From IMG/VR virus record IMGVR_UViG_3300043296_000162, positions 1-27,966 of that record: a DNA stretch of 27,966 nucleotides, one strand, 5' to 3'. Positions 450 through 23,688 of this stretch are shown in pieces. Under the pieces are notes generated by a model. That model was not told the origin of the DNA and made no database searches. It worked only from the letters and a program-made list of their open reading frames with translations. Both the position numbers and the translations under genes were made by a program. Source of the DNA: a virus (lineage: Duplodnaviria > Caudoviricetes). The number at the start of each line of letters is the position of its first letter. The stretch's first letter is position 1.

Positions 450-497
450 AGATGAAATTGCTAACTAACAATATTGCGTTTAAGGAAAGGAACACTA

Positions 498-1790
498 ATG
501 GCATGGAGTAACCCTTGGCGCAAAAAACGCGAAGTCAAAACAATGGTGTTGGGAACATCAGACGCATTCGGACAATTTTTGATGTTCGGCGAAAGCGGTA
601 CTGCCGCAACTCCATCTTCATCTTTAGCTTTGTATGAGCAATCAACCGCAGTCAGCATTCCAATTAACATGATCGCCGATGCTTTTTCTGTGCTTGAACC
701 GATTCTAATTATTGATGATAAGCGAGTCAAAAATCATCCTGTAATTGGTTTGCTAAATAAGCCTTCTCCGTATTTTTCTGGCGAGCATTTTCTTGAAATG
801 CTTGGTAAAGAATATCTAATTACCGGGGAAACGATGTTGATTTTGCTCGGTGGTAGGCGAAGACCGCCGCTAGAACTGCAACCGATTAGCGTAAAAAATG
901 CGTCAGTACCTGAAGGAACAGGCGGCGCGCCAAGCCAAATTCAAGTTTCTGGGAACACACTAACGGGCGAATACATTCCTGATATCACGAAAGGCGTTCT
1001 TCGATATTTCAGCGGCACTTTGCGAGAACTAATTCAGATTCGCAATTACTCAACTCGAAACAATTCGCTTTTGCGTGGGCAGTCGCCTTTGCTTGCGGCG
1101 TCGAAAGAAGTTCGTCAGCATATTTTAGGCGGAACGCATAACATTTCGATTCTAGAAAAAGGTGGCCGCGTTAGTTTGATCTTCCATTTTGATGCTGATA
1201 TGGACGATGAAGATTTTGAAGAGGCAAAGAACCGAGTTAGAGAGCAATACGGCGGCGCTGGAAACGCTGGCGAAATTGGTGTTACTGCTGGCGGCGAATT
1301 GAGTATTAAAGAAGTCGGAATTAATAACCGCGACATGGACTTTTCAGTTCTGCAGAAAATGGCTGTTAAGTCTGTGACTCTTCAATACCATGTTCCGCTT
1401 CCGTTGGTAACTGACGAACGACAAACGCTTAACAATTACAGGGAAGGAAAATTGGCGTTGTATGATGATGCTGTTATTCCTCTTTCCAAAAGAATTTTTG
1501 GCGGTTTAGGTGATACGTTGCTGCCGCGTTTTGGAGTTGATCCCGCGCGCGGGCGCATAACATTCGATCCTGATCAAGTAAGCTCGCTAGTTGCTAGGCG
1601 AAATGAAGAAGTTGGAAAGCGTCAGAAGATCGGCGTTGAATCTGATAATGAAATTCGCGCCTATCTTGGGAAAGAACCTTACGAGGGTGGCGATACTATT
1701 TTGAAATCAGCAAGTTTGATTCCTGCTGGTACAGATATATTCACAGAAGATAATGACCCGGACTTTATTGAAATAGATGACGATTCCTAA
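498..1790 (+). CDS. Phage portal protein, HK97 family
   Basis: Portal motifs HPVIGLLNKPSPY, YLITGET, LRGQSPL, L-x-I-KEVG...DMDF, YHVPLPLV, NEIRAYLGKEPYEGGD. ATG at 498 follows AAGGAAAGGA and is preferred over the TTG at 474. Confidence 0.93.
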   Translation: MAWSNPWRKKREVKTMVLGTSDAFGQFLMFGESGTAATPSSSLALYEQSTAVSIPINMIADAFSVLEPILIIDDKRVKNHPVIGLLNKPSPYFSGEHFLEMLGKEYLITGETMLILLGGRRRPPLELQPISVKNASVPEGTGGAPSQIQVSGNTLTGEYIPDITKGVLRYFSGTLRELIQIRNYSTRNNSLLRGQSPLLAASKEVRQHILGGTHNISILEKGGRVSLIFHFDADMDDEDFEEAKNRVREQYGGAGNAGEIGVTAGGELSIKEVGINNRDMDFSVLQKMAVKSVTLQYHVPLPLVTDERQTLNNYREGKLALYDDAVIPLSKRIFGGLGDTLLPRFGVDPARGRITFDPDQVSSLVARRNEEVGKRQKIGVESDNEIRAYLGKEPYEGGDTILKSASLIPAGTDIFTEDNDPDFIEIDDDS

Positions 1791-3567
1791 GCAAAAAAGA
1801 CAAGCGGCGGAAGACCACAATATCAAGCTAGTGCTTGAAAGCCGTTTGCGTGCAAAAATCAACGCTTTGAATGAGAAAATCATTCGAGAGTTTACTGCTT
1901 CGGTTGCGAGAATTGGGAACATTCCAAATTTCTTTAAGTACGAAGACGCTTTAGAAAAAATTCTTACCCAACATGATCAACTTGTAGCGAGCGTTTTTAT
2001 TGAGCGAATAAATAGACAAGTTGAAGCAGAAGAAAGCGGAACAAAGCAATTAATTCCGTTTATAAAATTGTCTGCCGAAGAAACTGCGATTGGCGCAATC
2101 GAATTATTTTCTGCGCGGTCTGTTGCAAAAGTCCCTGTTGTCGTTAATAGCTATCTCACAACAAAAACATCAGATAGTGTTAGCAAGATAACCGAAACAA
2201 CTAAAAAAGATGCGGCAAGAGCGTTGCAGAAAGCGCAAACCATAGCCGCTACTACAGCTGTAGAAAAAGTTGAAGTCGCTAGTTTAAGTGGTTCGATATT
2301 CCGAACTAAATTGAATGGCCGAACAACTGGCATTGTCACGTTAAACACAAACGCCGCCGCAGAATCTGCAAAACTAACACAGATCGAATTGTTGAGCGGC
2401 GAAGAACCTACGCTTGGCGGCGCGGGAACTAACAGAAGTAAAAGCAAAAAATCTTGGGCGAATATGGGCGATAGCCTAGTTCGTGCCGGTGGCAAATCTG
2501 CGTTTAATCATCTTCGCGCGGAACAGGAAGTTCAAATTGATAAACCTTTCATCGTTAGTGGTGAAAGTTTACGTTTCCCCGGCGACATGAGTTTGGGAGC
2601 ATCTATCGGTAACGTTGCGAACTGCCGATGCTCTGCTACTTACGATATTAAGAAAGTCGTTAACACGCGAAAGGGTTTAAGTGAAGTTGCAAGTACAACT
2701 TCGCGCGGGGGCGCGCGCATAAGAGATGACGTTAACAGTTTATTGCGCGGGCAATTGGGAAGAAACTCTAGACAATTCGCAAGGGAACGTTTGGTTCCCG
2801 CTAGCAAAGCTGGCAAAGCGGGAACGGAAGCAATGTTTCGACATGCTGACGGATCATGGGTAGCAAGCAGACAAAAATTGCATGAAGAAATTATTGCTGA
2901 AATTATGGAAGCTGCAAAATCTGTTAAGCCGGGAGAAAAAGTGCGATTGCAATTGTTAGGCGGTGGTCCCGCGTCCGGTAAATCGACGTTAGGAATTGTT
3001 GCGCCTGATGGTTCGGTTGTAATTGACGTTGATGCTATTCGCGCATTCTTGCCGGAATTCAGAGCGGGTTCGCGCATTGGAAAAACAACCGGAGTTTTCA
3101 ACAACGCAAACGCTGCAGCAATGACGCATAACGAAGCGAGTTATTTGGGTGGCGAAATTGCTAAGCGTGCCGCGCGTATGCGCGCGCATGTAATTCTAGA
3201 TCAAGTTGGCGATGGAAAAATTGATAAATTTTTGAAGAAATTGAAACCATTTCTTGATGACGGTTATAAAATTGAGGGTAATTATGTAACCGTCGATGTT
3301 GAAGAAGCACTTAGGCGCGCGCGTATCCGCGCATTGAAAACCGGAAGAACGGTTCCCGAAGAAGTAATTAGAGAATTACATGCTGGTGTTTCTGACACTA
3401 CTTTGAAAATTCTAGAAAAAGGCGATGTGTTTGACGAATTTCGATTGGTGTTTGGTGACAAAGAAGGAAAAGAAATTGCAAAGATCGTCAAAGGCAAATT
3501 GAAAATCGTTGATCAAAAATTGTGGGATGATTTTGCTGCAAAGGCTGCTGATGTTGTTGTCAAGTGA
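1777..3567 (+). CDS. Head morphogenesis protein (MuF / SPP1 gp7-like) fused to a C-terminal zeta-toxin-like P-loop kinase domain
   Basis: Immediately after the portal. MuF signature KKSW...GDSLVR...H...IDKPFIVSGESLRFPGD...NCRC (about 2446-2631). C-terminal Walker A GGGPASGKST (2959-2988), IDVDAIR, THNEAS, GYKIEGNYVTVDVEEALRRARIR...TGRTVPEEVI, typical of zeta/PezT-like kinases. Confidence 0.85.
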   Translation: MTIPKQKRQAAEDHNIKLVLESRLRAKINALNEKIIREFTASVARIGNIPNFFKYEDALEKILTQHDQLVASVFIERINRQVEAEESGTKQLIPFIKLSAEETAIGAIELFSARSVAKVPVVVNSYLTTKTSDSVSKITETTKKDAARALQKAQTIAATTAVEKVEVASLSGSIFRTKLNGRTTGIVTLNTNAAAESAKLTQIELLSGEEPTLGGAGTNRSKSKKSWANMGDSLVRAGGKSAFNHLRAEQEVQIDKPFIVSGESLRFPGDMSLGASIGNVANCRCSATYDIKKVVNTRKGLSEVASTTSRGGARIRDDVNSLLRGQLGRNSRQFARERLVPASKAGKAGTEAMFRHADGSWVASRQKLHEEIIAEIMEAAKSVKPGEKVRLQLLGGGPASGKSTLGIVAPDGSVVIDVDAIRAFLPEFRAGSRIGKTTGVFNNANAAAMTHNEASYLGGEIAKRAARMRAHVILDQVGDGKIDKFLKKLKPFLDDGYKIEGNYVTVDVEEALRRARIRALKTGRTVPEEVIRELHAGVSDTTLKILEKGDVFDEFRLVFGDKEGKEIAKIVKGKLKIVDQKLWDDFAAKAADVVVK

Positions 3568-3730
3568 AGACGTAATAAATATTTATTTGGAAATCGTCAA
3601 TGGTGAAGCAGCGCCAAAAAATGAGCCTGAAGATCATAGAATTTTTCGCGCAAAAGTTGCAGAAGAAGTCCGACAATTGAAAAAATTAAATATGACGCTA
3701 GAAATACCAAGCGATGATTTAAGAGAATAA
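3551..3730 (+). CDS. Small charged helical protein, candidate immunity/antitoxin for the MuF-zeta fusion
   Basis: ATG at 3551 overlaps the end of the MuF-zeta gene by 17 nt. 59 aa: MLLSSEDVINIYLEIVNGEAAPKNEPEDHRIFRAKVAEEVRQLKKLNMTLEIPSDDLRE. Fills the gap to the protease ATG at 3733. Function is inferred from position only. Confidence 0.6.
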   Translation: MLLSSEDVINIYLEIVNGEAAPKNEPEDHRIFRAKVAEEVRQLKKLNMTLEIPSDDLRE

Positions 3731-3732
3731 CA

Positions 3733-4914
3733 ATGCCCCTAATGAAGTGCCAAAAAGATGGTAAATCGGGGTGGAAATGGGGCGAAGGTGGTGTTTGTTT
3801 TACTGGATCTAATGGGCGCAGTCGCGCAGCGGCAGTTGGCAGAGCCATTCATGCGCAGGGGAATAAATTGCATATGAAATCTATTGAAACCAAACGCTTT
3901 GGTGGACACATTTTAGATACAAAGCAAGAAGAACGCAACGGCGTTCCCGTCGGGATTGTGTCTGGCCATATTGCGGCTTGGACCCCCGATACCGGCGGCA
4001 TGTATGGAATGCCAGATAGATTTCACCCAGGCGCATTCTTGAAATCTTTAGCCGAACATCGTTTGCGTAACAATCGACAAGTCCGAATGAAAGATCATCA
4101 TGGCCGAACCATCGGCGGATTCCCGATTGAAACAATGCAAGAGGATGGAAAGGGATTGTTCGGGCGTGGCGAAATTAATCTTGAAACTCAACTTGGACGC
4201 GAAGCATATTCGCTTGCTAGGCAACGGGTACTAACTGATTTTTCAATTGGCTTCATCGCTATTGAAGACAAAATTGATGCTGGTTTCAGAGAAATTTTTG
4301 AAGCTGTAATTATCGAAGGAAGCATTGTTGATGAACCGATGAATGTAGACGCCAACATAACAGAAGTTAAAGTTGCAATACCTTTTCAAGATTTACCGCT
4401 TGCTGAGCGGATGACGAGTTGGAATCCGCAAGCCGCTAAAGATAGGGTGAAAGATTTCACAGAATCCAAAGGCGCGCCTAGCGGGAATTTCAAACAAGCG
4501 TTTATTTGGCTAGATGAAGAAAGGGTTGAAAGATTTGACGGTTACAAACTGCAAATCGCCGATGTTATTGACGACAAAATGTTGGCTGTTCCGCGCGCGA
4601 TTGTGAAAGCGGCGAATGAAGTTCTTAAACGCGACGTTGGGATTCCTGATGAAGACGTTGGCGGCGTAACCCAACACATTGAAAGGTATTATGCGAAGAT
4701 GGGTTTGGTTTCCCCATTTAGCGATGATGAAAAACAATTTTTTGGAGTGGAAGAAATTAAGAATTTCACTTGTAGAGATATGGAAAGGGCTTTGCGCGAT
4801 AGCGGCGCGTTTTCAAAAAGCGCAGCTGTTGAACTAGCTGGAAAATTTATTGGGTTGAAAAATCCTGAAAGTGCGGCAGATATTTTGAAAGTTTTGGATA
4901 GGATAAGGATTTAA
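3733..4914 (+). CDS. HK97-family prohead (maturation) protease with N- and C-terminal extra domains
   Basis: Protease core DRFHPGAFLKSL, DHH...IGG, EDGKGLFGRGEINLETQLGREAY, DFSIGF, EGSIVDEPMN-x-DA-x-IT-x-VK. C-terminal RDMERALRDSGAFSKSAA motif. Located between MuF and the capsid gene. Confidence 0.9.
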   Translation: MPLMKCQKDGKSGWKWGEGGVCFTGSNGRSRAAAVGRAIHAQGNKLHMKSIETKRFGGHILDTKQEERNGVPVGIVSGHIAAWTPDTGGMYGMPDRFHPGAFLKSLAEHRLRNNRQVRMKDHHGRTIGGFPIETMQEDGKGLFGRGEINLETQLGREAYSLARQRVLTDFSIGFIAIEDKIDAGFREIFEAVIIEGSIVDEPMNVDANITEVKVAIPFQDLPLAERMTSWNPQAAKDRVKDFTESKGAPSGNFKQAFIWLDEERVERFDGYKLQIADVIDDKMLAVPRAIVKAANEVLKRDVGIPDEDVGGVTQHIERYYAKMGLVSPFSDDEKQFFGVEEIKNFTCRDMERALRDSGAFSKSAAVELAGKFIGLKNPESAADILKVLDRIRI

Positions 4915-8057: not shown

Positions 8058-11000
8058 GTGCCCACCTATATACTAAATAATGTTGGTGGAACCCTCAATT
8101 ATGACACACCTGTGGATCTTGGCGATCTTGATGACGATCCGTATAACCCAGATGGCGTGTATTGGGTGGCAAATGATGATGGCACTGACACTTTCATGCG
8201 CGCCGGATTTGAAAATCCGTCAGATGATCTTCTAGCTGGGGATAATTTACAAGAGTATCAAGTCCATGTAGTAAAAGTGGATACACTTGATGGCAACGAT
8301 CCAACTTTAACGATTGCACTTTATAATGGTGCAACTCCTGTACGTGATCTACTAACAGATGAACCTATTGGGAATGACCCTGCTGGTTACACTTTCAGTG
8401 TTTTCTGGAATGCAAATGAATTAACTCAAATCAGTGGCAATGCTGCTGCAATTGGTATTACAGGTAATCGTAGTGGTGGTGGGCCAACTGTTAGACGGGT
8501 TGCCGTAGTCGGTGCAGTTCGGTGGATTTCTACAGAAGATACAGGCGGCGTTACGCATCAAGGCGAAGGAATTGTTGACGGTGATGCTACCGTCGATGAT
8601 GCGACTGCCGAAGTTGATCATCAAGCGATTGCCGACGTAACCGGAAGCGCGATTGTTACGCTGGCTACTGCCAGTATGACGCGGGGTGACTTTGCTGATG
8701 TAACTGGAATCGCAACTGTAACTTTGGCGACTGGCGCCATAAAGAAACTTGCCGAAGCCGAAGCCGCAGGTTTGGCTGTTGCATCTGCGCTTGCTGAAGT
8801 AGATCATCAGGCCGTCGCTGGGGTTACTGGCGTTGCGACGGTCGATGCAAGCGCACATTTGAATATTATTCTTGGTGTTCCTTTCGCACCAGACTTTGAA
8901 GCTACTGTTATAAATTTCACCGGTTCCTACCTTGATATTGATGAAGATCCGTATGACATAGATGCAAATTGGATGGATGTTGTAGATGAAACTTCCGTCT
9001 GTTTTGGCATTTTTGATCTACCTGATTCGCTTCAATACAAAGTTGTTCGAGCAGTTGGCTTGCATTCTCTTGCTGTCACCGTTCGCAAGAATGCTTCTGG
9101 CGGAACTGATCCAACTGTTGCTGCTCAGATGTTTGATAATGCTGCCGGAAGAGAAATAGTTGTCGATAATGAAACTGTAACTAGCCTAACATCAGAAGTA
9201 CACACTGGCACATTCGGTTTAATACATGATCTAGATTACATAAATCTTCCATTCTTGCGGGTTGCAATATCTGGTACTTCATCTGGCGATAGAAATATTG
9301 ATATTGCTGCGATGCGTGTTTACCTTGCGATGGAAGGCACGCGCATCAAGTCTTCAGTTTCTGGCGCGGCGACAGTAACACTAGCTGATGGTGGTTTAAT
9401 TAAGATTGGCGCAGCGTCGGTATCTGGCGCAGCAACCATTACTGATGCTACTGGTGGAATTATTCATCCGGCGGCAGCGTCAGTAACTGGTGTTGCAACA
9501 GTTACCCTTGCAACCGCTGACGTTCTAAAAATTGGCGCGGCTGACGTTACTGGTGTTGCAACTGTAACGCTTGCAACTGCTGAAGTTTTACACATAGCAG
9601 CTGCAACAGTTTCTGGCGTTGCAACCGTAACGCTAGCAACAGCGAAAGTTGATCTTCAAGCAATCGGTTCGGTAACGGGTGTTGGCGATATTGACGCTGA
9701 CGCCAATCTTACTTTGCGTGTTCTCGCTTCTGTAACTGGAATCGCAACCGTTACTTTAGCTACCGCAACTATGGAATATTCCGCGTCGGCAAGTGTAGCT
9801 GGCGCTGCAACAATCACCGACGCTGGTGGTGGTTTAAGATTTGATGCTGCAGCTGATGTAACTGGCGCGGCAACAATTACTGATGCAACCGCCGAAGTTG
9901 ATCATAGTGCTATCGCTTCTGTTACTGGCATTTGTACTATCACCGACGCAACTGGTGATACCGGCGGTTTCAAACAAGGCGAAGCAGACGTAACAGGAAC
10001 TGCAACAATAACTGATGCTACCGCCGAAGTTCTTCATATTGCATCGGCGTCAGTTACTGGCGTTGCAACAATTACTGATGCGACTGGTGATGTTGGCGGA
10101 ATTCAAGATGGGGCCGCAAGTGTTACCGGAACTGCAACCGTAACGCTTGCGACTGCAATAGTTGAATATAGCGCGAATGCGTCAGTAACTGGCATTGCGA
10201 CTGTAACACTAGCAACCGCAAAAGTTCTTCATAGCGCGGGCGCGAGCGTAGCGGGCGCGGCAACTATTTCCGCGCGCGCGCATATGAATATAATTCTCGG
10301 TGTTCCATTTGCGCCGAGTGCTCATCTAAATAATATAAATTTCAGTAACGGCTCTAGTGGTTGGGAACAAATCGACGACGATCCGTTTGACATAGATGCG
10401 AATTGGCTAGATATTGTAGATGAAACTAGTTTGGGTTTTTATATTTCCGAACTTCCAAGTTCGCTTCAGTATAAAGCCATTAGAGGCATTGATTTACATA
10501 CCGCCGTGATCACAGTTAGGAAAAATGCTTCTGGCGGAACAGATCCAGACACTACTTTATCTATATTTGAAGGTGGTAACTCTAGAGAACATCCGATTCT
10601 TTCTGAAACTGTTACGGATTTAGTATCTGAAATTCACTCTGGTACATTTAGTTTACTAGATGTTACTGATCTTACAGAATTTAATACTGGAGTCCGTAGC
10701 AATACATCAGGTGATAGAGGTGTCGATGTTGCTGCCGTTCGTGTTTATCTTGCAATGGAAGGAACCCGCATAGCGGCATCAGTTACCGGAGTTGCCACAA
10801 TCACCGACGCAACTGGTGATATTCTTGGCGGAATTCAAGTTGGTGCTGCTGACGTAACCGGAATCGCAGCGACGACTGGCGATCTTACCGGAACTTATTC
10901 TGCTGATGCGGCTGTTACTGGTGTTGGTGCAATTTCTGCCGATGCTGATTTAACTTTAGTTGGTGTTACTTCAGTAACTGGCGTTTGTACCGTCAACGCA

Positions 11001-11894
11001 AAACCCGGAATCAAACTTTCAACTGCTGCAGCGTCGGTAACTGGCGAAGCAATTCTAGATCCTGATTACAGTCATGGTTGGCTAAATATAATTCCTGATC
11101 GACCGTTCGCGCCGATTGCTGATAGAGCAGGTTTTGGTTACACCGGAACTTTCGATTTTGTCGATGAAGATCCATATGACATTGACGATAATTGGGTAAC
11201 AGTTGACAACCCCAGCGGAAATTCAAATTACATAGTTGATTTTGTTGATGCTGCTTGGCTCAAAGCAGTTCACGCGCCTAACGCACACAATTTTGCAATT
11301 ACCGTTAGAAAAAATGCGGCTGGTGGAACTGATCCGGTTCGATTGAATGTTCGCAATACGGATGGCCCAGTTCAAAGAGAAACAATAATAGACGATGAAA
11401 CAGTAACTAACATAGTTTCTGAAGTTCATACTGGCACATTTAGTTTATTGTGGGCATTTGCAAACCTAACATTCCCGTCTGGTTCCAACAATTTGCGGAT
11501 TGCTGTACTTGGGAAAACTTCTGGCGATAGAAATCTTGATATTGCTGCATTCAGAATGTATATGTCGCTTGAAGGAACGCGCGGCAATGCGTCAGTAACC
11601 GGAACAGCAACAGCTATTGCGACTGGTGGAATAGTTGTTAGTGCTAACGCAAACGTTACAGGAATCGCAGCTGTTTCTGCGAATGCAATTATAAAACGTT
11701 CTGCGATTGCTTCAGTTACTGGTGTTGCGTCAGTTAGTGCCGAACCAGATTTGATAGAAGCTATTATTCTTGGGCGCATTATTTTTGAAGCAAGAATTTT
11801 CAAATCAATCGAAAGTAAAACTAACATTTATAAATCCATAAGAACATCAAGCGAACTAACAAAAAGCATTTATACCATGTCAGAGGTTGCATAA
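8058..11894 (+). CDS. 1278-aa repeat fibre protein: ~21-aa A/T/V/G repeats interrupted by repeated ~165-aa globular domains
   Basis: Repeat unit of the type AASVTGVATVTLATAEVLHIA. Three clear copies of a domain NII...PFAP...DEDPYDIDANW...TVRKNA-x-GGTDP...SGDR...EGTR, plus a diverged N-terminal copy. Confidence 0.8.
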   Translation: MPTYILNNVGGTLNYDTPVDLGDLDDDPYNPDGVYWVANDDGTDTFMRAGFENPSDDLLAGDNLQEYQVHVVKVDTLDGNDPTLTIALYNGATPVRDLLTDEPIGNDPAGYTFSVFWNANELTQISGNAAAIGITGNRSGGGPTVRRVAVVGAVRWISTEDTGGVTHQGEGIVDGDATVDDATAEVDHQAIADVTGSAIVTLATASMTRGDFADVTGIATVTLATGAIKKLAEAEAAGLAVASALAEVDHQAVAGVTGVATVDASAHLNIILGVPFAPDFEATVINFTGSYLDIDEDPYDIDANWMDVVDETSVCFGIFDLPDSLQYKVVRAVGLHSLAVTVRKNASGGTDPTVAAQMFDNAAGREIVVDNETVTSLTSEVHTGTFGLIHDLDYINLPFLRVAISGTSSGDRNIDIAAMRVYLAMEGTRIKSSVSGAATVTLADGGLIKIGAASVSGAATITDATGGIIHPAAASVTGVATVTLATADVLKIGAADVTGVATVTLATAEVLHIAAATVSGVATVTLATAKVDLQAIGSVTGVGDIDADANLTLRVLASVTGIATVTLATATMEYSASASVAGAATITDAGGGLRFDAAADVTGAATITDATAEVDHSAIASVTGICTITDATGDTGGFKQGEADVTGTATITDATAEVLHIASASVTGVATITDATGDVGGIQDGAASVTGTATVTLATAIVEYSANASVTGIATVTLATAKVLHSAGASVAGAATISARAHMNIILGVPFAPSAHLNNINFSNGSSGWEQIDDDPFDIDANWLDIVDETSLGFYISELPSSLQYKAIRGIDLHTAVITVRKNASGGTDPDTTLSIFEGGNSREHPILSETVTDLVSEIHSGTFSLLDVTDLTEFNTGVRSNTSGDRGVDVAAVRVYLAMEGTRIAASVTGVATITDATGDILGGIQVGAADVTGIAATTGDLTGTYSADAAVTGVGAISADADLTLVGVTSVTGVCTVNAKPGIKLSTAAASVTGEAILDPDYSHGWLNIIPDRPFAPIADRAGFGYTGTFDFVDEDPYDIDDNWVTVDNPSGNSNYIVDFVDAAWLKAVHAPNAHNFAITVRKNAAGGTDPVRLNVRNTDGPVQRETIIDDETVTNIVSEVHTGTFSLLWAFANLTFPSGSNNLRIAVLGKTSGDRNLDIAAFRMYMSLEGTRGNASVTGTATAIATGGIVVSANANVTGIAAVSANAIIKRSAIASVTGVASVSAEPDLIEAIILGRIIFEARIFKSIESKTNIYKSIRTSSELTKSIYTMSEVA
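8545..11745 (+). repeat. Degenerate ~63-bp coding tandem repeats plus three ~500-bp dispersed domain repeats (about 8851-9345, 10276-10770, 11071-11586)
   Basis: Recurring GTWACTGGYGTTGCAAC-like units. Shared blocks such as AATGCTTCTGGCGGAACWGATCCA (near 9090 and 10525) and TCTGGCGATAGAAAT (near 9282 and 11520). Confidence 0.85.
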
Positions 11895-22002: not shown

Positions 22003-23688
22003 ATGACTGTTGGAATTGACGCATATTTGAAAAAAATTCCCGGTGGTCTTTATGATTTGGATTTCGTAGGAGAATCTGAAAAAAGAATTTTATTTCTTTC
22101 TTGTTTTAATGACTCTACAAATTGGACTCCAGACGTAAAAAATGATTTGTTTGATGAAGGCGTAATAGTTTCGCCTAACTCTAGTGGTTCACTAAAATTT
22201 GTAGCAACTTCTTCTGACAATTCTCTAAATGCAATTAGAACTTTTGATGCGGCAGATTTTACCGACACAACTTTAAGTTTCTGGATATACATAGGGGCAA
22301 ATTTCTGGGAAAATTTTAACACTGGTGGCAATGCTGTAACACTTAAAATTCATAGTGATGTAGGTGTTGATTGGCAAGTTTGGTTTTTTGATAGATCTGA
22401 ATTTATAAAAGCGGAAAGCTGGCTTCAACTAAAAGTAAATTTTTCTACTGATGACCCTGATAGTAGTGCTGGAAATTTGGATTTTACAGCAATTACTGAA
22501 ATTGAAATACATGCTTTTGCTGGGCCATTTACTCAAGTTGATGACATAATGTATATTGATCAAATTGAAATAATGAAACCAGCGGTTGTTTCTGGTGATA
22601 TCAGATCTGAAGATTTTTTTGACTCTGCAATTTTGGTTAGTTTATTTGCCGAAAGTCGGGCTAGTGAATCTGAAGTTTTTCAATCACATATGCGGCGCGG
22701 ATGGATTGGAAACGAATCGACTCCCGGTTTTGAAATCGGATCAAAGATTTGGCTCTATGAGCAAGCGCGCCTAACACGATCTGTGTTGAATGGAATTACA
22801 GCTGCTGCAAGGCAATCTTTACAATGGCTGATTGACGACGATTACGCTTTGGCAATTGATGTTGAAGCTATTTTAACTGCTAGTGGTGTAGATATAAACA
22901 TAATAATTTATAGACCAAACTCAAAAATTGATCATCGCTATTACACTTTATGGGATAATACAGGCGTTGAAGTCCCTAAACCTCAAACTTATTTTGAACT
23001 AACAGTTCCTTCTACTGATTTAGGCCCGCTCGATGGAACTAGAATTGTTAGTTACAATATTTTTGATAAAGTTGGAAACCCAAGTTACGCGGTTGATGTT
23101 ATTGTCTATTGCCGTTGGCCTTTCGCTGGTGTTGGTGCTCCGACAATGACAACAGGTAAGGGTTGGCACCCTGATAGCAAAATTACAATTTTTAACGATT
23201 TTAATAATCAAATTCTTGGTGCAGGTGGTCGCGGTGGTCGCGGTGGTGAAGTATCCGGTAATGGAGGTGTCGGCGGTGGCGGGGGCGGTGCTAACTCGTT
23301 TGGCGCCGGAGGTTTACCGAATGGTGTAGATGGTGTCTATGTTGTAAATTGGCCTACGGGCGGTGCCGGTAGTCCAACCGGCGGTGTTGAGGATCGTGAC
23401 GCCGAACCCGGACAAAGCGGTTTCCCTTGTATTGAAATGTTCCACCCAATAACGTTTATGAATAATGGTTCTATATCTGGTGGTTGTGGTGGCGGCGGCG
23501 GCGGTAGTTCTGAGGGCGGCGATGGCGGTGAGGGTGAGACTCACGGATTCCAAGCTATTCCCAGGGAAGGTGAACCAGGGACGGGAGATAATCCAGGTGT
23601 CGGTGGCAATTGGGAATATGCAATTATCACAAATGGTTACGTTATAACTTACAATCCTGAAGGGCTTATTCGGGGTGGAGTACTCTAA
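22003..23688 (+). CDS. Mu gp46-like baseplate protein with a ~175-aa internal insert and ~240-aa Gly-rich C-terminal extension
   Basis: gp46 core SAILVSLFAESRA...RRGWIG...IGSKIWLYEQAR...ARQSLQWLIDD at about 22591-22968, between the gp45- and gp47-like genes. Confidence 0.82.
   Translation: MTVGIDAYLKKIPGGLYDLDFVGESEKRILFLSCFNDSTNWTPDVKNDLFDEGVIVSPNSSGSLKFVATSSDNSLNAIRTFDAADFTDTTLSFWIYIGANFWENFNTGGNAVTLKIHSDVGVDWQVWFFDRSEFIKAESWLQLKVNFSTDDPDSSAGNLDFTAITEIEIHAFAGPFTQVDDIMYIDQIEIMKPAVVSGDIRSEDFFDSAILVSLFAESRASESEVFQSHMRRGWIGNESTPGFEIGSKIWLYEQARLTRSVLNGITAAARQSLQWLIDDDYALAIDVEAILTASGVDINIIIYRPNSKIDHRYYTLWDNTGVEVPKPQTYFELTVPSTDLGPLDGTRIVSYNIFDKVGNPSYAVDVIVYCRWPFAGVGAPTMTTGKGWHPDSKITIFNDFNNQILGAGGRGGRGGEVSGNGGVGGGGGGANSFGAGGLPNGVDGVYVVNWPTGGAGSPTGGVEDRDAEPGQSGFPCIEMFHPITFMNNGSISGGCGGGGGGSSEGGDGGEGETHGFQAIPREGEPGTGDNPGVGGNWEYAIITNGYVITYNPEGLIRGGVL

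Follow-up and report, generated by a model that had tools for sequence, protein, structure and literature searches.

Here, we analysed a two-part protein encoded in the virus record IMGVR_UViG_3300043296_000162 (Caudoviricetes), positions 1 to 27,966 of which form the stretch of DNA studied, hereafter the window. Open reading frame (ORF) 1777-3567 on the plus strand, a single unbroken frame of 596 amino acids (aa), joins a MuF-type head-morphogenesis carrier to an intact P-loop kinase of the zeta-toxin family, and genes for this kinase are strictly linked to a small gene (ORF 3551-3730 in the window) whose product is likely to be a kinase inhibitor. The protein appears to behave as a MuF polymorphic effector, is likely packaged in virions by analogy with cyanophage P-SS2, and seems to have an acceptor pocket of a third type, neither that of zeta nor that of AvrRxo1.

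The fusion is real. A preliminary description of the window, made from its letters alone, had read the protein as a MuF head protein fused to a zeta-like kinase, and this reading is confirmed: the C-terminal half matches Pfam Zeta_toxin (PF06414) over aa 377-559 (E value 5.5e-17; score 62.3 bits, cut-off 22.3), and the motifs stand where they had been placed (IDVD at aa 416, DQVGD at aa 475, GRTVP at aa 523). A single contig covers nucleotides (nt) 2527-3105 with 0 differences; the run it comes from is labelled marine sediment metagenome and may itself have been the window's source. Among the runs listed for the sequence, none is an RNA run. The fusion recurs in a variant with 89% identity (L003) and in two proteins with 57% BLASTP identity (P0002 and P0003). 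Because the contig spans the junction and the fusion recurs in relatives, it is not an assembly join; together with the unbroken ORF, this rules out a frameshift or misjoin as its origin.

The kinase resembles three enzymes to the same degree. Its predicted structure (predicted local distance difference test, pLDDT, 91) yields Z scores of 18.4 with zeta, 17.9 with PezT and 17.8 with AvrRxo1, so that the comparison with all three suggested in the preliminary description ends in a tie at about 18, with polynucleotide kinases and ng_zeta1 below this group (Z at most 13.1); the family match is to Zeta_toxin and not to a non-zeta ATPase family. The top Foldseek row was zeta. Profile comparison gave E values of 4e-17 for zeta, 1e-9 for PezT and 1e-8 for AvrRxo1, the last with the longest aligned span, and profiles were required, since a single-sequence search of the PDB with the kinase returned nothing below E 0.08. 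The NCBIfam XopAJ model (NF041405) for AvrRxo1/XopAJ was not passed (15.8 bits against a cut-off of 300). Residues K402, D419, R518 and R524 are intact and near-invariant across the 262 distinct domains compared, a set biased towards the query, and the ratio of nonsynonymous to synonymous substitution rates (dN/dS) relative to L003 is 0.23. In AvrRxo1, a protein with the Walker A change T167N is reported to have kept forming product (PMC5491322). The domain thus combines a PF06414 match above cut-off and a zeta fold with the P-loop lysine, catalytic aspartate and lid arginines of the zeta-toxin kinase superfamily. Plasmid matches proved to be distant zeta-family genes (28-29% identity) and were set aside.

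The N-terminal half is best assigned as a divergent MuF-type domain, because it matches two head-morphogenesis families of PHROG, 2468 (E 2e-11 over aa 118-293) and 3517 (E 5e-10), is encoded between the portal and protease genes, and has recognisable MuF landmarks in a by-eye alignment of 16 sequences, although identity to the distant rows is only 13-16%. The NCRC sequence begins at aa 282 (nt 2620); homology to head-morphogenesis families, a CRC end motif and a position after the portal gene are the features expected of MuF/gp7 proteins. Pfam Phage_Mu_F (PF04233) matched neither the whole protein at E<=1 nor aa 1-293 at E<=0.1, and no NCBIfam model, gp7 included, matched aa 1-293 at E<=1. 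Of the complete MuF/gp7 domain ending in NCRC that had been described, the end motif, the PHROG kinship and the gene order therefore stand, whereas Pfam and NCBIfam do not recognise the domain; of the two halves, Pfam recognises only the kinase. The linker (58 residues) is indeed basic, with 12 K/R against 5 D/E.

The kinase is one of several interchangeable ends on this carrier. A whole-protein search returned 10 proteins: the same MuF-kinase fusion is present in P0002, P0003 and P0007, the carrier is kept with an HExxH domain in P0004, P0005 and P0008 (the motif is seen in the sequence, without a Pfam match), and P0006 keeps it with an ADP-ribosyltransferase end. The sister phage L007 aligns with the window as far as nt 2645 and then from nt 3884 onwards; in place of nt 2646-3883, partner included, it encodes a tip with HExxH and another small ORF, of 66 aa. 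In a set of 87 loci chosen by their carrier, the kinase is present in 8 and an HExxH tail in 12 rows (with some duplicates), and most are tipless. A constant carrier with interchangeable C-terminal enzyme tips is the arrangement of MuF polymorphic toxins, and we read the MuF-kinase protein as such an effector because in sister phages its N-terminus recurs with a peptidase or an ADP-ribosyltransferase at the end, or with no tip at all. Neither this swapping nor the ORF overlapping the kinase stop figured in the preliminary description. At L007 5252-6997, the MuF protein additionally contains a His/Ala repeat insertion, and the unrelated 66-aa ORF next to it is a candidate partner for the HExxH tip.

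The second line of evidence is the partner. A profile iterated from 91 distinct downstream candidates, with the window ORF and its two closest copies excluded (46 sequences gathered), matches the window ORF at E 7e-7, and gave 0 matches in 15,666 segments of a reversed-sequence control. The partner family occurs at 72 of 80 viral kinase loci, directly downstream at 58, fused in frame at 4, further on at 7 and convergent at 3, a count that includes near-duplicate loci and loci that built the profile. In the independent carrier-selected set, it is present at 4 of 8 kinase loci (two being the window's own copy and the L003 contig) and at none of the 79 MuF loci that lack the kinase; with duplicates and loci with less than 300 nt downstream removed and the CRC motif required, the figures are 3/4 and 0/49. 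The partner also stands at 7 of the 13 kinase loci that come from bacterial assemblies. The kinase thus has the tip-specific small downstream gene typical of MuF polymorphic toxins (72/80 versus 0/79). The ORF has a dN/dS of 0.22 and a predicted two-helix hairpin (pLDDT 71), with no match in Pfam, NCBIfam, PHROG or Atlas and no fold match at E<=0.001; PDB sequence matches to designed repeat proteins were rejected as short helix matches. At L017, L031 and L036, the partner is encoded on the opposite strand, tail-to-tail, so that its expression could be independent of the late operon.

What the kinase phosphorylates was approached through its pocket. Zeta residues E100, T118, R120, T121 and T128 lie on the side of uridine diphosphate N-acetylglucosamine (UDP-GlcNAc) (PMC3062530, PMC4938570); their counterparts here are G459, V477, D479, G480 and approximately K488 (the T128 position adjoins a gap), so that 0 of 5 are kept and the domain lacks the residue set that strictly marks a zeta/PezT UDP-GlcNAc 3'-kinase. 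The Arg120 position is Asp or Asn in 259/262 domains. Conversely, an N-terminal RxxLH element and the HxExS motif are common to the kinase and AvrRxo1 and lacking from zeta and PezT; H451, E453 and S455 are retained in 260, 262 and 254 of the 262 domains, and HxExS probably lines the acceptor site because it sits on the helix that bears E100 in zeta. The AvrRxo1 loop at 475-480, however, is unlike that of the viral clade. Since the zeta substrate residues are replaced, and HxExS and RxxLH are as in AvrRxo1 while the 475-480 loop differs, the pocket appears to be of a third type. The preliminary description had taken DQV as a sign of an altered substrate. An altered substrate is plausible, given the Arg120 replacement and HxExS, but DQVGD itself is a minor local variant (n=7, against n=194 for DGTGD) and was discarded as such a sign. 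Tentatively, we put NAD (nicotinamide adenine dinucleotide) or another adenine nucleotide first as acceptor, with NAD, suggested by these sequence features, as a lead; an acceptor of some other kind is a somewhat doubtful possibility, and a UDP-sugar is rather unlikely.

Evidence on virions comes from a homologue in cyanophage P-SS2, whose ORF030 (L001 5786-10285) has a MuF domain at aa 154-270 and the kinase at aa 427-597. According to Table 2 of PMC2784084, purified particles gave a mean of 96.5 peptides for ORF030, a value near the 102 of the tape measure protein and consistent with few copies. For ORF033, a partner-family member (E 7e-13), the mean was 2.5, compared with 0-0.5 for non-structural genes. 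By this homology, the window's protein is likely packaged, as the preliminary description had supposed. In that paper, ORF030 carries the label 'major capsid protein', yet it is a polyvalent protein with MuF and a zeta-family kinase.

We propose, on balance and with some confidence, that this is a swappable MuF-kinase of which a few copies are packaged and injected with the DNA, that its partner inhibits it, and that it phosphorylates a nucleotide other than UDP-GlcNAc, NAD being the leading guess. The carrier would put a few copies of the kinase in the phage head, as the analogy with P-SS2 suggests. We infer that during late expression the partner would bind and restrain the kinase, shielding the producing cell; that ejection would take the kinase into a naive cell devoid of partner, freeing it; and that the freed kinase would alter a nucleotide pool ahead of phage gene expression, possibly to slow the host or blunt nucleotide-based defence. 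A few injected copies could matter if turnover resembles that of AvrRxo1, with a kcat of 430 per s (PMC5087710). A bolder version, which we consider doubtful, holds that such proteins are widespread capsid-delivered kinases of NAD or defence nucleotides with co-packaged inhibitors, making 3'-NADP or capping an immune signal before expression, and that the clade is the sister or source of AvrRxo1.

Several observations weigh against the favoured scheme. No activity, toxicity or injection data were found for any clade member, and the record is 53% complete and consists of the structural module. The sequence profile favours zeta over AvrRxo1 (E 4e-17 versus 1e-8). Val477 occupies the site where Thr to Val rendered PezT non-toxic in the published mutant, yet Val occurs there in 27/262 natural domains. 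Eight of the 80 kinase loci have no partner match (two end at a contig edge and one has 181 nt left), and only 4 of the 8 kinase loci in the MuF-selected set have one (two are truncated). The ORF033 count is low, with neighbouring small ORFs at 1-1.5 peptides, and the P-SS2 table gives counts for the whole of ORF030, not the part that the peptides cover. Finally, partner peptides in P-SS2 virions and fusion in cis (4 viral loci, 8/176 proteins) fit a chaperone or subunit equally well.

The published idea of a classical kinase of UDP-GlcNAc or another UDP-sugar that weakens the cell wall (Iyer et al. 2017) accords with zeta being both the best profile match and the top Foldseek row, with the Gly-Thr-Gly of the zeta loop being kept by most clade members, and with ng_zeta1 binding UDP-sugars through different residues (PMC5923241). 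We nevertheless consider it unlikely, given that none of the five zeta residues is kept and that Arg120, reported as a UDP-phosphate contact, is almost always Asp or Asn; moreover, the precursor is cytoplasmic, so that an injected kinase would presumably act past the passage through the wall. If the partner served as a chaperone packaged along with the kinase, or as an activating subunit, and not as an immunity protein, this would explain its detection in P-SS2 particles and the in-frame fusions behind the kinase, but a small ORF right after the tip is the usual position of immunity genes (89.4% of MuF toxins in PMC5576092), three loci have a convergent partner gene on the opposite strand, and the downstream partner of AvrRxo1 is described as a potent inhibitor; this role is improbable in our estimate. 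We would put at a similarly low level a function in lysogen kin discrimination or competition, whereby partner-expressing lysogens are immune and the effect of the injected kinase is to stall non-lysogens or to tip the choice for or against lysogeny. Such a function has been suggested for MuF toxins generally (PMC5576092) and would suit the relatives in bacterial genome assemblies, the P-SS2 integrase (PMC2784084) and the convergent partner genes. In the window, by contrast, the partner is embedded in a late head operon, a promoter scan found no plus-strand promoter-like site in 3000-4000 (weak evidence, as the scan performs at chance level), and no lysogeny module is visible in this fragment of structural genes from a 53% complete record.

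Two further readings concern the enzyme itself. A polynucleotide-kinase-like activity healing RNA ends cut by host defence nucleases could be argued from a Pnkp1 match (E 1.4e-6), polynucleotide-kinase folds at Z 11-13 and a weak PHROG match to polynucleotide kinases; these folds, however, lie about 5 Z units under the zeta group, and a dedicated partner gene would suggest toxicity over repair, which makes this activity very unlikely. Least credible is the reading that the domain has decayed and is carried, inactive, by a structural protein: the Val in place of Thr118 and the faster divergence of the kinase than of its flanks (84.5% versus about 95% identity) would agree with decay, but the catalytic residues are all intact, dN/dS is low and the partner is retained.

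The kinase clade extends well beyond the window. At E<=1e-10, 1,690 cluster representatives match, of which the best 150 were examined; weaker matches may be ordinary zeta-family proteins. At least 150 residues precede the kinase domain in 131 of 171 fetched domain-bearing proteins, and 22 of the 171 contain it at least twice. Of the 157 relatives identified in a viral scan, 80 were kept. After near-duplicates and the two closest copies were dropped, 63 distinct viral carriers were scanned, with the best 5 families taken per carrier: 32 are fusions to MuF-type (26), portal (4) or protease (2) proteins, 4 match phrog_2859, 1 is DarB-like and 26 have no recognised carrier. A head or packaging gene is nearby at 18 of 24 carrier-less loci (24 of the 26, with 56 of 64 neighbouring ORFs scanned). 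Among annotated phage genomes, P-SS2 is the sole match (37% identity). Some carriers are unusual. At L030 3-5702, a DarB-like antirestriction protein ends in the kinase, and the partner domain is in the next gene; L004 3886-9339 encodes 1817 aa combining the kinase with cytidylyltransferase-like and PI3/4-kinase-like domains, a weak 2H match and short RDxxG motifs that occur repeatedly, without a partner match. The carrier-less kinases of L026, L033, L035, L037, L043, L047, L059, L080 and L089 have recurring N-terminal motifs, GGxGSGxxGHxGxPG and RDxxG[RKQ][FW], which we take to be candidate capsid-loading signals.

Table 1. Features of the MuF-kinase locus, with positions in the window.
Feature	Position	Strand	Basis
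Portal protein (context)	474..1790	+	Pfam Phage_portal, E 4.6e-38; 14-nt overlap with MuF start
Divergent MuF-type head-morphogenesis carrier domain, aa 1-293, NCRC end at 2620-2631	1777..2655	+	PHROG 2468/3517; alignment; reuse with other tips
Basic linker, aa 294-351	2656..2829	+	Composition; L007 similarity ends at nt 2645, just upstream
Zeta/PezT/AvrRxo1-fold P-loop kinase tip, aa 352-596	2830..3567	+	Pfam Zeta_toxin; model pLDDT 91; Foldseek, VIA-align
Walker A GGGPASGKST (aa 395; Lys402)	2959..2988	+	Aligns to zeta K46
Asp419, predicted catalytic base (zeta D67, AvrRxo1 D193)	3031..3033	+	Alignment; roles as given in PMC3062530, PMC4938570
HxExS motif (H451, E453, S455)	3127..3141	+	Common to AvrRxo1; absent from zeta, PezT
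DQVGD loop (zeta EGTGR; clade consensus DGTGD); Asp479 in place of zeta Arg120	3199..3213	+	Alignment
59-aa partner ORF, overlaps kinase stop; predicted two-helix hairpin; candidate cognate inhibitor	3551..3730	+	Profile, linkage, dN/dS, model
Prohead protease (context)	3733..4914	+	Pfam Peptidase_S78, E 9.7e-14

The locus (Table 1) lies in a myovirus-type structural module in the order portal, MuF-kinase, small ORF, protease and major capsid, followed by neck, sheath, tape measure, baseplate and endolysin genes. The start of the protease ORF (3733-3883) is a short two-cysteine segment that is absent in L007 and may be a separate module moving with the cassette. Amid the head-tail adaptor genes, ORF 8058-11894 (+) encodes a 1278-aa repetitive protein rich in Ala, Val, Thr and Gly, without a PHROG match, which is possibly a head fibre or decoration protein. 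In ORF 22003-23688 (+), the baseplate wedge match spans only aa 195-320 of 561, leaving an N-terminal domain without assignment and a glycine-rich C-terminus.

The architecture itself is known. Iyer et al. 2017 (PMC5512222) note in one sentence, citing their Fig. 5F, that phages have a zeta-toxin-like kinase joined to MuF, and they suggest that it weakens the wall, assuming a cell-wall precursor as substrate; because they already state this fusion, its novelty was overstated in the preliminary description. Their passages on it mention neither a partner gene nor a changed pocket, and the partner could already be present in Fig. 5F or in the external supplement. The MuF polymorphic toxins of Jamet et al. 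2017 (PMC5576092) likewise have a carrier between portal and protease, a variable C-terminal tip and a small downstream ORF, whereas the window's carrier misses the Pfam MuF model; the terms 'zeta' and 'PF06414' occur 0 times in their main text and readable supplements (5 of 6), and they include P-SS2 gp030 solely on account of its ADP-ribosyltransferase. Zeta of S. pyogenes and PezT, the UDP-GlcNAc 3'-kinases paired with epsilon and PezA, share the fold, Walker A lysine, catalytic aspartate and lid arginines with our kinase, which differs in its replaced UDP-GlcNAc-side residues, its fusion to a virion protein and its unnamed partner family. The NAD 3'-kinase AvrRxo1 and its inhibitor Arc1 offer the same fold (228 residues aligned), an N-terminal W..eR.kLH element, HxExS and a small downstream partner, but at only 18% identity, with a different loop after strand 2, no match between the window's partner and Arc1, and type III secretion in place of putative capsid delivery; in PMC10989847, AvrRxo1 serves only as a control. 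P-SS2 has MuF, the same kinase clade and the same partner family, but ORF030 is polyvalent and 1499 aa long, its partner ORF033 is three genes further downstream, and ORF033 is labelled 'unknown structural protein' in PMC2784084. In the open-access literature, outside which subscription papers largely fall, the Iyer sentence is the only statement found on a MuF-zeta fusion, and nothing was found on partner or substrate. To that extent, the cognate partner family, the argument for a substrate other than UDP-GlcNAc and the re-reading of the P-SS2 proteomics are new.

Recent work still describes MuF-borne enzymes as thought to be in the head (PMC12226406). The clade reported here is large and recurs on several head proteins. 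Cultured P-SS2, in which the kinase carrier and the partner are both in particles, provides a direct test system, and the partner family provides the control needed for cloning and assaying the kinase. Should the kinase act on NAD or a signalling nucleotide, the cell-wall interpretation in the literature would be wrong for this clade, and phages would gain a handle on nucleotide pools before transcription.

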